Source: Ostreococcus lucimarinus (lineage: Eukaryota). From it: a stretch of 64,000 nucleotides of DNA. A model generated the notes under the pieces. That model made no database searches, was not told the DNA's origin, and worked only from the letters and a program-made list of their open reading frames with translations. This document shows positions 4,717 through 59,094 of this stretch, piece after piece. The stretch lies in NCBI GenBank assembly GCA_000092065.1, contig CP000586.1, one strand, 5' to 3'. The translations under genes were made by a program, and so were the position numbers. Numbering within the stretch: position 1 is the stretch's first letter; every line of letters starts with the position of its first letter.

Positions 4717-6450
4717 ATGGCGGCGAGACGCGAACGAGAGGGTGGCGACGGCGGTGATGATGAAATTTCCGAGACCGAGAGTGATCGTTTCATCGTAAAA
4801 GTTGCGGAGTACTTGCAAGGTGCGATCGGTGCGCACGGTTGGAGCGAGGAGACCGTTCGCGGGGCGTTTGACGAGGCGGTGAAGCACATGCCTAAAGGAA
4901 GAGCTCGAAAGGCTTTGCGAGCGGGTTTCGATGAGTACGCGGATAAATTATGTGACACAATTTACCGCAAAAATGGTCCCTCGATCGAGCGCACGAAAGA
5001 GGAGCGTAAGATTGCAAAGTTGAGCAAGGATCCGTCGAGCGCGTGGTGGGCGTTGCATCAAGAGCCGCTCGAAGATTTTGCGTCGGCGTCTTTGGAAGTA
5101 TTGTGCGTAGAGTTTGACTACTCACTCAAACGTGCATCCTTCGATATCCCCGCATACGTCCTCATGAAGGCGTTGGAGATTTCTGACATGCTGCCTGAAG
5201 ATGTAGCGACGATGGAAGAAATTCGCGAGGCGGCACTTCGTCGTCTCGTCGATATCGCGCAAGCATCCAAAGCTGCGTTTGAAAAGAAGGCAACGAAGAC
5301 GCAGGATGACTTCGTCAAGGTGAATAATCTCGTAGGTAGACTCGCGGGCGCGACGGCTATTCGTCGTAAAATGCAAGGCGCTCGTGATGAAACTGCAAAG
5401 TTGGCGGCGGAGATTGTCATGCTGAGGCACGATTTCCGTAAACTCGCCTCGCAAGACGCGAGTCTGAGTCCACCAGAGCACGAGATCGGCGTCACCGCAT
5501 CACACGATGCCGCGGTGTTATTAGGAAACTATCGTGGGGATTTAGCAGCTTTGCTCGCCGAGAGGTTGCCCGAGGACGAGAACGAGCTCGCGCGCATGTT
5601 TGGCGAAGGCGATTTGCCCATCTTTGAGTGCGCCCTCGGCCTCGGTGGTTTCGACGCCGATTTTGAGAAACGAGGCAAAAAGAATGGACTGATGTTCGGC
5701 ATGTTGGATATCGATGTGAAAGATGTGAAAGATGTCGGCAAGAACGCACCTCCGGCGCTCTTACGTCGACCACCAAAGGCAAAGTTTGATGCCAACAAAG
5801 AGGTGAACGATTACGATATGGAAGCTTTCGCTCACGCGGGGGCCGGGGTATCGACGACCAGTATTGCAGAGTCTGCATTTAATAAGTCCGACTTTATCGA
5901 TACCGACTATCTCACCGAGGCGCTGTCGCTGGTGGGTAAAGACGACGACGAACGTAGCGGACCAGGGCGAGTCAAGTTGTACTTTGCCGTCGTGCGAGTC
6001 GCTCGAGCATACATCAAGCTTTTGAACGAGGCTGGTAAACGTAAGAGGTCCTCGGCTGTGGCGCGATACATGGCAGTCGCACCTGCGCCTGAGGTGCTTC
6101 TCATGCACGTTCCGGAGTCGTCTGGAATCGATAATACAGATGCTCGCGCGATGTCCGTCGAGCTCTCCGTCGCCTCCATCAAGGCGCTGCAAAGCATCGT
6201 CAACGAATGGAACGAAATGCGTACGCTGTTCAAATCTGCGGCGCAGAGTGAAGGTGGCTTTTTCATCGATGTTAATCGTACCGCAGGAGATGCCGCGAGG
6301 TTGGCGTTTGAAGAAGGTGAGTCTGCCGAGGACGACGGCGCGGGCGTCGACGACGAAACCGAAAAAGAACTCATGGCCATGCTCGACAAGCTCGAAGGCC
6401 CGGATGCATCTAGCGACGATAGCGACGACGAGGCGAGCGATGAAGATTAG
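4717..6450 (+). CDS. hypothetical protein, 577 aa (acidic termini, no recognised domain)
   Basis: Long ORF with diverse amino-acid composition and markedly lower GC (~50-55%) than flanks. ATG at 4717. Confidence 0.6.
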   Translation: MAARREREGGDGGDDEISETESDRFIVKVAEYLQGAIGAHGWSEETVRGAFDEAVKHMPKGRARKALRAGFDEYADKLCDTIYRKNGPSIERTKEERKIAKLSKDPSSAWWALHQEPLEDFASASLEVLCVEFDYSLKRASFDIPAYVLMKALEISDMLPEDVATMEEIREAALRRLVDIAQASKAAFEKKATKTQDDFVKVNNLVGRLAGATAIRRKMQGARDETAKLAAEIVMLRHDFRKLASQDASLSPPEHEIGVTASHDAAVLLGNYRGDLAALLAERLPEDENELARMFGEGDLPIFECALGLGGFDADFEKRGKKNGLMFGMLDIDVKDVKDVGKNAPPALLRRPPKAKFDANKEVNDYDMEAFAHAGAGVSTTSIAESAFNKSDFIDTDYLTEALSLVGKDDDERSGPGRVKLYFAVVRVARAYIKLLNEAGKRKRSSAVARYMAVAPAPEVLLMHVPESSGIDNTDARAMSVELSVASIKALQSIVNEWNEMRTLFKSAAQSEGGFFIDVNRTAGDAARLAFEEGESAEDDGAGVDDETEKELMAMLDKLEGPDASSDDSDDEASDED

Positions 6451-6702: not shown

Positions 6703-7686
6703 TCATGTAACTTTTTTCCACGCCGACGTGTCAACGTGGGCGGAAACGACGAAGAATATGAAAAGGCCGATCGCGACGGGTGAAAGAGTCGGCAGCGCGC
6801 GGCACACTAACCGACGCACGCCGTGCGTATCTTTCGCACATTCGTACTTGTACCACACCAACGCGCACGCACAGAAGATTATTAAAAAGTATCTCATGTA
6901 TCGTGCCTTTTGGGCCCACGTCATCTTGCGGAAGCCGTACCTATCGAACGGCGCGACGTGATGCCACACCTCGTACGTGCAATTTTTTCGCCGAAACCGC
7001 ATCGAAATACGCTTCATCTCTCCATCATCGCCATCTTGCACCGGAAGCTCGGTGGCGCGACTCGCCACCGCGAAGTCTTTCTCGTCGCTCACGACGTGCC
7101 AAAACGAACCAAATTTCCGCGTCAATTCTTCTCTGATCGCCGACGCGCGTTCGTCGTGATCGTCATCGGCGGTGTCCGCATCGCTGAGAACTTTCAGCAC
7201 GGTATTCACGATCGCTCGTGGAATCCCATCGACGTCGCTCGTCACCGTCGCCGTCGCCGAACCTTTTCTTCGTTTCGCCGTCTCCGTCGCTTCGTCGTGT
7301 TCGTCCCGCATCGCTTGAAACGCCAACTGTTGCGTTCCATCCACCCCACTCCCGAGGCTCAGCGAATCGAACACCAACACGCGAAACTCCGGCGCTTCCT
7401 TCCCTCCCGCGCTTCCGCGCCTCCCTCGCGCGCGCGCCGTCGCGTAGGCCAACGATTTCTTCGCGAATCTCAAATTCACGTTAAAATCCCCCCTCCCCAC
7501 CACGACGTGCGTCGCCGCGTCGTCGATTCCTCGCGCGATCGCTTCCGCGATGCGTTTCATCCCTCCCGCGTCGCCCGCGACCGCGCGCGCGTCGCCCTCG
7601 CGCTCGAACGCCTCGCGCACCGCGCGCAGGATTTCAAGCCTTCGCCGCGGCGCGCAGTCGCATCGCCGCAGCGCGACGTCCGCCAT
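6703..7686 (-). CDS. tandem dynein light chain LC8-type (DYNLL-like) domains with C-terminal transmembrane anchor
   Basis: Real start is ATG at 7686 (MADVAL...) inside longer spurious ORF 6703..8460. Domain 1 KRIAEAIARGIDDAATHVVVGRGDFNVNLRFAKKSLAY...EFRVLVFDS and domain 2 IREELTRKFGSFWHVVSDEKDFAVASRATE...TYEVWHH both fit the LC8 core (..K.FD.KYG.TWHCIVGRNFGSYVTHE..F.YF...A.LLFK). C-terminus has hydrophobic helices (YFLIIFCACALVWY..., AIGLFIFFVVSAHV). Confidence 0.55.
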   Translation of the reverse strand: MADVALRRCDCAPRRRLEILRAVREAFEREGDARAVAGDAGGMKRIAEAIARGIDDAATHVVVGRGDFNVNLRFAKKSLAYATARARGRRGSAGGKEAPEFRVLVFDSLSLGSGVDGTQQLAFQAMRDEHDEATETAKRRKGSATATVTSDVDGIPRAIVNTVLKVLSDADTADDDHDERASAIREELTRKFGSFWHVVSDEKDFAVASRATELPVQDGDDGEMKRISMRFRRKNCTYEVWHHVAPFDRYGFRKMTWAQKARYMRYFLIIFCACALVWYKYECAKDTHGVRRLVCRALPTLSPVAIGLFIFFVVSAHVDTSAWKKVT

Positions 7687-8009
7687 CGCGGTCGAGTTCG
7701 CGTCGGTCGACGTCGACGTCGACGTCGCGCGTCGCCTCGCGCGCGCGCGCGCTCGCTCTCGCGTCGCGCGGTGCGGGCTCGCGCGGAATCGACGGACGGT
7801 TCGCGAACCGTGAAAGAGTCGTCCGTCGAGCGCGACGCGCGCCGCACACGGCGACGCATCGCGACGACGGCGCGCGCGACCGACGCGGCGACGACGATCG
7901 ACGCGCGGCGACGACGCGCGCGGCGACGACGCGCGACGCGACGCGACGCGCGTGAACGACGCGAAGGGAAGGAATCGACGACGGCGATCTCGCGGCGAGA
8001 ATTCATTCG

Positions 8010-8010
<1 letters not shown>

Positions 8011-8037
<27 letters not shown>
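8011..8037. repeat. (ACG)9 trinucleotide microsatellite in divergent promoter region between LC8-like gene and CNOT2
   Basis: acgacgacgacgacgacgacgacgacg read directly. Confidence 0.9.
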
Positions 8038-8041
<4 letters not shown>

Positions 8042-8137
8042 ACGTGAGGCGCGCGCGCGACGGCTCGGGTGGTTTGAACGGCGGTGAAAGCGGCGTCGGA
8101 CGGGGCGTCGGGAGGCCGTCGCGTCGGACGGGCGGCG

Positions 8138-9718
8138 ATGCAGAGCAACGGATACGGGCCGCAGGGCACCGCGCCGCCGCCGGGACCGTACGGGCAGCAA
8201 GGAGGGCTGCCGGGGATGCCGTATAACGCGGTTCCGCGTCCGGGAGGACAGTTTGCGCAGCAACGTCCGATGCAGAACCCGCCGGGGATGCAAGGGGCGC
8301 CGGCGATGCCGCGCGGAGTGATGGGCGGGGCGGCGCGACAAGGTTCGCTGCCGCTGCCGTACGGGGGGGTTCCGGGAACGCAGCAGCAGCCGGGCATGAT
8401 GGGAACGTCCGGAGCGGGAGGACAAGGCTCGATGGCGCAGGGTGGTATGAGCGGCGTCATGGGCGGCGTGCAGCGAGGGGTTATGCTAGACCGCAGCGCG
8501 AGCCAACCCGTGCAAGGGCAAGGGGTTCCGCAGATTCAGCGCGCCGCGAGTGGGTTGCCGATGCCGAGCGCGGGCATGAGCGCGCCCAGAGCGGGAGGTG
8601 TGATGGGCTCTGGGCCGCTGCCGCGAGCGTATCCCACGATTGGGTCGCAAGGAGACGTGAACGGAATGCCGAAGATGCAAGGCGTGGGAGGATTGGACAT
8701 GGATCCGTCGGGTGGTATGATGGGCGGATTAGGCGGTTTTGGGCGAGATCAGAAAGCGCCCGGGTTTGATGATTCCGAGTTCCCGACGTTGGGCGGTGGC
8801 GGTATGCCGCAGCGAGGGCCGTCTTTCGGAAACGGGTACGGAGGCATGCCGGGCGAAGGGTACGAGGGCGTGTACGACTTTTCAAAGCCTCAGCAGGACT
8901 TTAGCATGGAGAAGGAAGATTTCCCCGCCCTCGGTGGAAAAGGGCAAGGAAATATGGGTGGACTCGTTCCTCCGCCGGGGCTGGATGCGTCGGAGGGATC
9001 GAGTCCGTCGTATCCGCCTTTGGCTCGTCAAAGTTCGAGCGGCGTGGGTTTCGGCGCGCAAGCGCCGGGACGTCAAGCGGGTGCGCCGGGTGGAATTCAC
9101 TTCGATGGCGGAGCACCGCCGCCGCCGGGTAAGCCCGGCACGGCGGTACCGGCTAGAACGAGTGGTGGGACTTCGCAGAAGGACCGATACGGCTTGCTCG
9201 GCTTGTTGCCGGTGATTCGAATGGCGAATCCAAACGTGTCCACGCTCGCCTTGGGTGCTGACTTGACCATGCTTGGTTTGAACCTCAACTCTCCGGACAG
9301 CTTGTATAAGTCCTTCTCGTTGCCCTGGAACGATTCGGCGCCAAAGAACGACATGGAACTCACTATTCCATCCGCGTATTCGCAGCAAGTGAGTCGTTGC
9401 CATCCGGCGGTGTTCGCGAAGTTCCAGCAGGAGACGCTCTTTTACATCTTCTACAGCATGCCCGGAGAAGAGTCTCAATTATTCGCCGCGGACGAGTTGG
9501 TACAGCGCGGATGGGGGTTCCACAAAGAACTCAAGGCTTGGTTGATGCGCGTGGCGAACACCGAACCGGCGAATCAAAACGAGCAGGGCGAGCGCGGCTC
9601 TTTCTGGGTGTTCGATCCCATGACGTGGGAGCGAGTGAGGAAAGACAATTTCACGCTGCAGTACGATCAGTTGGAGACGCGCCCGACGGTTCCCTTGGCC
9701 GAAAGGAGCTTGCGTTGA
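8138..9718 (+). CDS. CNOT2: CCR4-NOT transcription complex subunit 2 (NOT2/3/5 C-terminal domain protein)
   Basis: Track ORF starts with TTG at 8084; first ATG at 8138 (MQSNGYGPQG). G/Q/P/M-rich N-terminal half, then NOT2_3_5 box: ...LFYIFYSMPGEESQLFAADELVQRGWGFHKELKAWLMRV...FWVFDPMTWERVRKDNFTLQYDQLE. Confidence 0.85.
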   Translation: MQSNGYGPQGTAPPPGPYGQQGGLPGMPYNAVPRPGGQFAQQRPMQNPPGMQGAPAMPRGVMGGAARQGSLPLPYGGVPGTQQQPGMMGTSGAGGQGSMAQGGMSGVMGGVQRGVMLDRSASQPVQGQGVPQIQRAASGLPMPSAGMSAPRAGGVMGSGPLPRAYPTIGSQGDVNGMPKMQGVGGLDMDPSGGMMGGLGGFGRDQKAPGFDDSEFPTLGGGGMPQRGPSFGNGYGGMPGEGYEGVYDFSKPQQDFSMEKEDFPALGGKGQGNMGGLVPPPGLDASEGSSPSYPPLARQSSSGVGFGAQAPGRQAGAPGGIHFDGGAPPPPGKPGTAVPARTSGGTSQKDRYGLLGLLPVIRMANPNVSTLALGADLTMLGLNLNSPDSLYKSFSLPWNDSAPKNDMELTIPSAYSQQVSRCHPAVFAKFQQETLFYIFYSMPGEESQLFAADELVQRGWGFHKELKAWLMRVANTEPANQNEQGERGSFWVFDPMTWERVRKDNFTLQYDQLETRPTVPLAERSLR

Positions 9719-9828: not shown

Positions 9829-11031
9829 CTACATCGTGAAATTTGACACAGGAATGATGATTTCGTTTCGCCTGAGGAACGGGTTCGTGAATGGATCGTT
9901 GTACTGCGCCAACGCGGCGGCGCCGCTCGCCTCCAAACCGTCGTTCTCGATCAATTTTCGCAACTGCTTCTCCACGTCACGAGCCGCCTCCTCGGTCGCG
10001 ACGCCAGAAAATTTCTTAGCGACAAAAATACCGCCACTTTCTTCCCGCAACACTACGTTTTCATTCGTGCTCGCTGGGAGCGCGTCCACGGAGTCGCCGC
10101 TCACGACAAATTGCATCGTGGCGTTCTTCGTAAACACAGGCGTCGTCATCTCCATTTTCGTCCCACTCGCGTTGGCTTGGCCGAAGATGTAACCCGCCAA
10201 AGAATTAAAAGCTTGGCCCGCGACTTGACCGTTCATTTTTGCGCTGCTCGACGACACTTCCTTGACGTTCAGACCCGGACCCGTGGCGGCGACCAAGTAC
10301 GGCTCGTATCGTCGCACTTCGTAATCGCGCCTCTTCTTCAGCACCACGTACCCTGGGGTGTCCAAATCCGGCGTCTGCGCGAAATCAAAAATCTGTTTCA
10401 GCACCTCCACCACGCCCTCCGCACTGAGATGCCTCTGATTCTCAATCGAATCCCACGTGTCCACGTGGCGCGTCACCTTCTTAGTCTCCTCGTCGATCCC
10501 CATGATGGACGTTCCCGTAAAAGTCAGCGTCGGTCTCCAAGCGAAAGGAAACGTCGGCAATCCCATCACCATCGTCCATCGCGTCGTGATCTCCCAAGGT
10601 CCGCTCTGATATATTTCATGCATCGCGTACGTCGGCGAGAACACCCGTCGCAGCATCTGAATGTTAAACGCGTACCCGTCGAACGAGTCGTACTTCGTCA
10701 GCGGGTCCTCGAACGACACGTCTTTCGCGTACAGCGACGGATCGATCCCCTCGTCGTCGAACAGGTGCGTCAGATCCTCCGCCAGCGCCTTTCGCATCCG
10801 CGCGGACTCTTCTTCATCCATTCCCTTCGCCGTCGATGACGTCGTCGTCGTCGCGCGCGTCGCCGTCGTCGTCCGGCGTCGCGCGTCGCGCGTCGTCGGT
10901 CGCGTCGTCCGTCGCGTCATCGCGCGCGTCGGTCGCGTCGTCATCGCGCGCATCGTCGTCGTCCGTCGTCCGTCGTCTGTCGTCGTCCGTCGCCATCCGC
11001 CATCCGCCGTCGATCCACGATTTTGCCTCAT
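9829..11031 (-). CDS. SOUL heme-binding protein with N-terminal DUF2358/NTF2-like domain (plant HBP5-like), likely plastid-targeted
   Basis: ATG at 11031; R/T-rich presequence. C-terminal SOUL domain (TPGYVVLKKRRDYEVRRYEPYLVAATG...MTTPVFTKN...GGIFVAKKFSGVATEEAARDVEKQLRKLIENDGL...YNDPFTNPFLRRNEIIIPV). Confidence 0.8.
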   Translation of the reverse strand: MRQNRGSTADGGWRRTTTDDGRRTTTMRAMTTRPTRAMTRRTTRPTTRDARRRTTTATRATTTTSSTAKGMDEEESARMRKALAEDLTHLFDDEGIDPSLYAKDVSFEDPLTKYDSFDGYAFNIQMLRRVFSPTYAMHEIYQSGPWEITTRWTMVMGLPTFPFAWRPTLTFTGTSIMGIDEETKKVTRHVDTWDSIENQRHLSAEGVVEVLKQIFDFAQTPDLDTPGYVVLKKRRDYEVRRYEPYLVAATGPGLNVKEVSSSSAKMNGQVAGQAFNSLAGYIFGQANASGTKMEMTTPVFTKNATMQFVVSGDSVDALPASTNENVVLREESGGIFVAKKFSGVATEEAARDVEKQLRKLIENDGLEASGAAALAQYNDPFTNPFLRRNEIIIPVSNFTM

Positions 11032-38883: not shown

Positions 38884-39087
38884 CGCGATTCGCGCTCTTC
38901 GTCGCGCTGTGTCGCGCGTCGTCGTCGTCGCCGCGCGCGCGAAAACGCTCGAGTAACGCTCGAGTCTCACGGTCCGTCCGTTTACAACACGGATTTCAGG
39001 GCACAAACCCTCGGCGGCGTCGCGGGCGCGCCGTCGCGACGCGCGGCGCCGCGCACCGACGCGCGCGCGCGACGCGAACGCGCGCGC

Positions 39088-39170
39088 ATGCACACGACGC
39101 GCCCGTGCGGCGCCGCGCGCGACGCGCGCGCGATGTTCGCGTCGACGATGCGTCGACGCGCGCGATGGAT

Positions 39171-58777: not shown

Positions 58778-59094
58778 CGCGCGGTGTGTCGAGCGACGCG
58801 TTGTCGCGGTCGCCGCCGCCGCGCGCGCGACGCGCGGGTCGAACCCGCGTCGCGTCGCGCCTTCGCGAAGGGTCTCTCGGTCGATGGTCGTCACTGTTTA
58901 CCCATACGGATCGTGCGTTCGGAGGTGATTTCGAGCGCTTTTGCGACCTCGCGCGCTCGACGCCGCGCGCGTCGCGCCGCGCGCGCGACGCACGCGCGCG
59001 CGCGGCGACCGGTCGAGCGCGCGCGCGCGACCGCGGCGCGCGCGCGAACGCGCGCGACCGCGCGCGACGCGCGCGCGCGCGACGCGAGCGACCG

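Follow-up and report, generated by a model that had tools for sequence, protein, structure and literature searches.

The gene on the minus strand at 6703..7686 of the window, by which we mean the whole 64,000-nucleotide stretch of Ostreococcus lucimarinus nuclear contig CP000586.1 that was analysed, encodes a protein in which a single polypeptide unites two divergent LC8 domains, with two conserved hydrophobic helices and a short basic tail behind them. What is new is a known domain, that of the LC8 dynein light chain, in an undescribed architecture that is restricted to one lineage and carries a plausible signal for localisation; the function is what we infer. The double-LC8 protein is a lineage-specific extra LC8 paralogue of the prasinophyte green algae, and not the canonical LC8.

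Two divergent LC8 domains in a single polypeptide

Translation of the minus strand across 6703..7686 gives a product of 327 aa plus a stop codon, encoded by a single exon without introns. The coding sequence is complete (327 codons, with the stop at 6703-6705), and its two ends coincide with those of the orthologues. The product is identical to O. lucimarinus CCE9901 XP_001418355.1 / ABO96648.1 / UniProt A4RYB2, for which the database name (XP_001418355.1 / A4RYB2) is "predicted protein" and the NCBI model is likewise 327 aa long. Both of the peptides in which a preliminary description had seen LC8-like cores, THVVVGRGDFNVNLRFAKKSLAY...EFRVLVFDS and KFGSFWHVVSDEKDFAVASRATE...TYEVWHH, are present in this translation. 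The start methionine is common to the orthologues, where it opens the motif M-x-[DE]-V-x-V-[RK]-R. Upstream of it the reading frame runs on without a stop to 8460 (window 7687-8460, ~770 nt), because the intergenic region is CG-rich and of low complexity, containing (GAC)9 at 8010-8037 as well as CGCGACG-type repeats at 7726-7961; this extension overlaps the 5' end of a NOT2/3/5 gene on the opposite strand. In metagenome gene calls the protein appears in a spurious form of 481 aa (P0001/P0017), and an antisense ORF of 438 aa on the plus strand (6910..8226) is probably a compositional artefact like the upstream extension.

The N-terminal LC8-like domain (aa 1-110; 7357..7686, minus strand) was recognised by profile, by an AlphaFold2 (AF2) model, by Foldseek, and by PF01221 matches of the family N-halves. 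Its elements follow the order beta1-alpha1-alpha2-beta2-(beta3)-beta4-beta5, and in O. lucimarinus 14 extra aa are inserted between beta4 and beta5. In the PDB, a broadened profile of this half (alignment A5) picked out 34 different LC8/DYNLL sequences at E 0.003-0.28 before its first non-LC8 match, at E=6. Eight of 18 family N-halves match PF01221 individually, and no competing Pfam family was matched by more than one of these 18; the query's own isolated N-half gave no match to Pfam. An AF2 model of the N-half alone (aa 1-111) reached a pLDDT of 87.6 and a pTM of 0.81, and the best 50 PDB matches of this model in Foldseek were all LC8 (E from 5e-5, TM up to 0.83). The N-terminal half is a divergent LC8 homologue with the LC8 fold.

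A linker (aa 111-145; 7252..7356, minus strand), modelled with pLDDT <50 for residues 111-142 and variable in length among family members (well over 100 aa in P0112), leads to the C-terminal LC8-like domain (aa 146-246; 6949..7251, minus strand), which was identified from Pfam, a C-half profile, and AF2 secondary structure. Its core KFGSFW-H is invariant in the family, and an insertion of 10-20 aa separates beta3 from beta4. The full protein matches PF01221 (Dynein_light) with 30.0 bits (E 7e-7; best stretch aa 159-206), a marginal pass of the gathering score of 29.1 bits, and all 14 of 14 close homologues match the same family at E<1. The isolated C-half scores 21.7 bits against PF01221 (E 2.6e-4), and each half alone falls below the Pfam threshold. 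The C-half profile (alignment A6) searched against the PDB finds LC8 at E 1e-4, with dynein light chains making up nine of its 10 matches. A full-length AlphaFold2 model of moderate confidence (pLDDT 69, pTM 0.58) contains two beta-alpha-alpha-beta-beta-beta-beta units (aa 3-107 and 147-242) and then two long C-terminal helices. The order in the second unit is E147-150, H157-167, H177-192, E196-201, E205-209 ... E228-233, E236-242; this C-half fold is taken from the full-length model, whose fold matches are not assignable to either half. The C-terminal half, too, is a divergent homologue of LC8 with its fold.

It should be noted that the LC8 matches became significant only once distant family members had joined the half profiles: a single-sequence PDB search gave a weak LC8 match (E 0.5), and half profiles built from Ostreococcus alone were likewise weak (E 0.14 and 0.27). 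With the broader profiles, the proposal in the preliminary description that one chain carries two LC8 domains is borne out by the half profiles, Pfam PF01221, and Foldseek with the N-half, the homology having been examined by profile and fold searches and upheld for both halves. No significant similarity between the N-half and the C-half was detected by hhalign with either narrow or broad alignments; we therefore reject a recent internal duplication and regard the two as an old, anciently diverged pair. Two further candidates were set aside, namely a Pfam 'Ground-like' match (E 0.03, far below the cut-off), taken as noise, and a linker 'GTQQL' read as a self-binding TQT-like motif, which was dropped because its T and Q vary among orthologues.

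Both halves align in register with human DYNLL1. Among the residues that we take to form the dimer interface and ligand groove of DYNLL1 (W54, H55, G59, F62, Y65, T67, Y75, Y77, F86, and S88), H55 and F62 are kept in both halves (H60 and F68 in the N-half, H197 and F205 in the C-half). W54 is lost in the N-half (T59) and kept in the C-half (W196), G59 is kept as G64 in the N-half and is Asp (D201) in the C-half, and F86 is kept as F106 in the N-half and is Trp (W241) in the C-half. The N-half also keeps Y75 (Y81), D12 (D10), and R60 (R65, not kept in the C-half), and of the pair K87-S88 it retains S88 as S108, with H242-H243 standing in this place in the C-half. Groove substitutions are found at Y65 (to N or A), at T67 (to R), and at Y77 (to T in the N-half), and canonical TQT binding may therefore be lost. 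Because Y65, T67, and Y77 are substituted, the linear-motif specificity of the protein, as read from its sequence, probably differs from canonical TQT.

A prasinophyte family next to NOT2/3/5

When 1.84 billion representative proteins were searched by profile, only 28 relatives came back, including distant full-length proteins of the same layout. The named members are from O. lucimarinus, O. tauri (XP_022839137.1), and Pyramimonas sp. CCMP2087 (MMETSP), and a second homologue search with a broad profile added no further named taxa. The remaining members lie on marine metagenome contigs, some of ~47% GC and others of ~67% GC, which by composition only would be Bathycoccus-like and Micromonas-like, respectively.

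In the window, the double-LC8 gene stands head-to-head with a plus-strand gene (8084..9718) encoding a NOT2/NOT3/NOT5 C-terminal domain of the CCR4-NOT complex. The same neighbour occurs at L001 859-2358, L003 484-2094, L006 589-2040, and L011 1175-3082, with a spacing of the divergent pair from a few hundred bp to ~1 kb. This adjacency is conserved beside members that are only 25-30% identical and thus supports orthology across the Mamiellales, and the arrangement may reflect a shared bidirectional promoter; one more distant member has different neighbours. Beyond the NOT2/3/5 gene lies a minus-strand gene with DUF2358 and a SOUL haem-binding domain (9829-11031), in the same order as in L001. 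On the downstream side, a plus-strand gene (4717-6450) encodes a 577-aa acidic-tailed protein without a Pfam match, and a gene of ~581 aa in L001 and L002 is syntenic with it.

One Ostreococcus-like lineage carries tandem paralogues (L001 3001-3936 and 4241-5200; also L002). One of the pair, 319 aa long, is a normal copy that has the hairpin and ends in KKSD; the other, of 311 aa, diverges after 'WHHVAPF' and has one weak hydrophobic stretch and no di-lysine motif. We considered whether the different C-terminus of the P0014 type was an unspliced intron and rejected this, as it belongs to a separate tandem paralogue beside a normal copy. Elsewhere in the window, ARAGORN places a tRNA-Ala(CGC) at 39058-39130 and a tRNA-Pro(CGG) at 58971-59064, both on the minus strand; the latter, at 94 nt, possibly contains an intron.

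O. lucimarinus builds no flagellum (Wickstead & Gull 2007, PMC2239267). According to the same survey it is without cytoplasmic dyneins 1 and 2 and outer-arm dynein and has kept IAD-1alpha/1beta and IC138, and canonical LC8 is found in all 24 of the 24 genomes analysed, including that of O. lucimarinus (PMC2239267). The double-LC8 protein is therefore an additional, divergent member of the LC8 family in this organism.

A predicted membrane hairpin ending in a di-lysine motif

Downstream of the second LC8 domain are two hydrophobic helices. Helix 1, the predicted first arm of a hairpin in the membrane (6850..6891, minus strand; core aa 266-279 between R265 and K280), was delimited by Kyte-Doolittle hydropathy, an AF2 helix spanning 257-282, and its position, which is conserved across the family alignment; it is short, with a core of ~14 residues and Kyte-Doolittle values of 1.3-1.4, and drops below threshold in several orthologues. 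Helix 2 (aa 298-316; 6739..6795, minus strand; AF2 helix 290-326) rests on hydropathy and conservation, with Kyte-Doolittle values of 1.9-2.4 in 11 of 11 full-length Ostreococcus-group members scanned and a hydrophobic stretch at this position in distant members too, and is a strong predicted transmembrane segment. Between them runs a loop (aa 280-297; 6796..6849, minus strand) that contains C283, directly after helix 1, and C295, directly before helix 2. In an alignment of 19 sequences these cysteines are the sole invariant residues outside the LC8 cores, and the loop that spaces them varies from 10 to 84 aa; it is possibly closed by a disulfide. A basic C-terminal tail (aa 317-327; 6706..6738, minus strand) completes the protein and ends in KKVT. 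The C-terminal membrane anchor of the preliminary description thus stands, with both hydrophobic helices conserved in orthologues.

By position, helix 2 (298-316 of 327) fits the criterion for a tail anchor; a weaker conserved helix (266-279) lies 18 residues upstream, and this second hydrophobic segment makes a hairpin likelier than a classical tail anchor. Arg residues stand ahead of helix 1, long-loop members have a neutral to acidic loop, and the tail has a net charge of +2 to +9, a distribution that fits the positive-inside rule. Since beta1 of the first LC8 domain already begins at residue 3, there would be no signal peptide, and we infer a hairpin whose two ends both lie in the cytosol and whose Cys-flanked loop projects into the lumen.

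The extreme C-terminus, KKVT (6706-6717, minus strand), is a di-lysine motif of the KKXX type. A Lys at position -3 is present in 23 of 26 distinct family tails and in 18 of 21 after de-duplication, every other position of the tail holding Lys in just 1-7 of these 21 (binomial P ~2e-9 for the enrichment at -3, uncorrected for phylogeny). Canonical KKXX or KXKXX is found in 12 of the 26 distinct tails, and eight more combine K(-3) with an Arg at -4/-5; some family tails are without a second basic residue at -4/-5. The tails are otherwise unalignable and of differing length, so that what is constrained is how far the Lys lies from the C-terminus. A Lys at a fixed distance from the C-terminus characterises the di-lysine ER-retrieval motif recognised by COPI, a motif that needs a cytosolic C-terminus. 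The KKXX/KXKXX pattern thus points to a putative cytosolic C-terminus and ER retrieval, and the cytosolic C-terminus that the motif requires agrees with the hairpin topology. A role at the ciliary base, which had also been suggested, is unlikely because the family is retained in non-flagellate genera, and the KKXX/KXKXX pattern indicates the ER instead.

A protein of the same architecture might have another destination, such as the mitochondrial or chloroplast outer membrane or some other endomembrane, with K(-3) acting as a general basic signal. Organelle outer-membrane anchors typically combine moderate hydrophobicity with a basic tail, and the short, weakly hydrophobic helix 1, the strongly basic tails, and the restriction of strict KKXX or KXKXX to fewer than half of them would all suit such a destination. 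The enrichment of Lys is nevertheless specific to position -3 relative to its neighbours and persists despite indels, as a general basic patch would not, and we hold these other membranes to be an unlikely, if serious, alternative to ER retrieval.

A candidate LC8 pair at the endoplasmic reticulum

The reading that we prefer, and that as a whole we judge about evenly balanced between right and wrong, is of a membrane-tethered single-chain LC8 pair that is inserted as a hairpin in the ER and nuclear envelope, retrieved by COPI, and captures clients as a pseudodimer. Hairpin insertion would leave the N-terminus and both LC8 domains in the cytosol, send the loop to the lumen, and return the C-terminus to the cytosol, where COPI would read KKXX/KXKXX and confine the molecule to the ER and nuclear envelope. 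Packed against each other as the subunits of an LC8 dimer are, the LC8-like domains would form an intramolecular hetero-pseudodimer, and this would offer one or two non-identical grooves by which short linear motifs of disordered clients could be captured at the ER surface.

LC8 has a ligand groove only where its two subunits meet in the dimer. Because of this, and because both halves carry H55 equivalents and are joined by a long flexible linker, an intramolecular LC8-type pseudo-dimer appears plausible; pairing between molecules, or no pairing, would be just as conceivable. The beta3 strand of LC8 pairs with the partner subunit, and beta3 of the N-half (68-70) is a strand in the full-length model and absent as a strand in the model of the isolated N-half, which gives a hint of a pseudo-dimer.

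The LC8-like domains may instead be structural relics without peptide binding, serving as a dimerisation module (N:N' and C:C') or as a scaffold for the hairpin. We consider this improbable, to about the same degree as another destination, though both halves carry substitutions at several canonical groove positions, the C-half has Asp for G59 in addition to its beta3-beta4 insertion of 10-20 aa, and neither half reaches the Pfam threshold by itself. Against mere relics, equivalents of Phe62 and His55 persist in both halves and those of D12, Y75, F86, and S88 in the N-half, and the kept residues are nearly invariant at a family identity of ~20-30%, which suggests that a surface, and not the fold alone, is under constraint.

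That the N-half is no LC8 at all and resembles it through a chance motif, 'VVVGxxDF...RVLVFDS' being similar to a bacterial NHL-repeat blade (three bacterial NHL-repeat proteins in the family profile search show 5-9 repeated weak matches at positions 51-111, and the query's isolated N-half has no Pfam match), or that the hydrophobic C-terminus is an artefact of reading into the 3' UTR, is highly improbable, given a confident alpha/beta LC8 model of the N-half with LC8 throughout its best 50 PDB matches, a profile that matches 34 LC8 sequences exclusively, and the conservation of the hydrophobic C-terminus, the Cys pair, and K(-3) in orthologues down to ~20% identity. This conservation, together with the complete MMETSP transcripts that exist for relatives of the double-LC8 protein, rules out the 3'-UTR read-through against which the anchor had to be checked. 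The NHL beta-propeller reading was likewise rejected, being a single motif-level resemblance to a half that folds as an alpha/beta LC8. The three proteins concerned (P0110, P0116, and P0120, all large bacterial NHL-repeat proteins) match the family profile at E 1e-7 to 4e-4; their blade 'ADVVIGQxDF...NNRVLIYNS' mimics 'HVVVGRGDF...RVLVFDS' of LC8 beta2-beta3 and beta5, a convergent false positive that could contaminate iterative searches.

Canonical LC8 is a free, soluble, symmetric homodimer of ~89-aa subunits and a highly conserved eukaryotic hub that joins disordered partners. The protein described here differs from canonical LC8/DYNLL1-2 (PF01221) in its 327 aa, its two non-identical domains, its linker and insertions, and its membrane hairpin, and its halves are 13-20% identical to canonical LC8. 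For both halves, the best matches in sequence and structure are Chlamydomonas LC10 and LC6 and the trypanosomatid LC8-like chains (9y6s, 9e5c), represented by 7kzm_P and 9y6s_6Y/6Q/6E. These axonemal chains show that heterodimers of non-identical LC8-like subunits are possible; they are, however, separate small soluble polypeptides of axonemal dynein, whereas the double-LC8 protein is one anchored chain in algae without an axoneme. Among the top structural matches are also the flatworm tegumental proteins FhCaBP2/4 and CsTAL3 (5fwz, 9voa, 5x2d), in which a DLC-like domain is fused to another module; they differ in having one DLC-like domain with EF-hands and no transmembrane segment, and come from an unrelated lineage. 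The likeness to di-lysine ER-resident membrane proteins lies in the KKVT end, the near-universal K(-3) of the family, and the predicted cytosolic tail, and is one of putative sorting signal and not of homology. We found no solved LC8-class chain in the PDB that covers both domains, and no description in the literature of tandem or duplicated LC8 domains, of a membrane-anchored LC8, or of this protein under its accessions.

If true, a membrane-bound, asymmetric pair of LC8 domains joined in nature would represent a new use of this hub, with two different grooves in 1:1 stoichiometry and clients recruited to the membrane. The double-LC8 protein is also a candidate for a link to the unexplained retention of axonemal-type dynein in non-flagellate Ostreococcus. 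The anchored pseudo-dimer might even be the membrane receptor for the orphan I1/f-type dynein (IAD-1alpha/1beta and IC138), taking hold of its intermediate chain at the LC8-binding region, alongside free LC8 or in its stead; we rate this as very unlikely, but if true an axonemal-type motor would be put to work moving membranes in the cytoplasm. The small, intron-less protein and the transformability of O. tauri make work on localisation and interactors feasible. The family is a lineage marker for prasinophyte picoalgae, in which the minimal cells of Ostreococcus serve as a model of a stripped-down eukaryotic plan.
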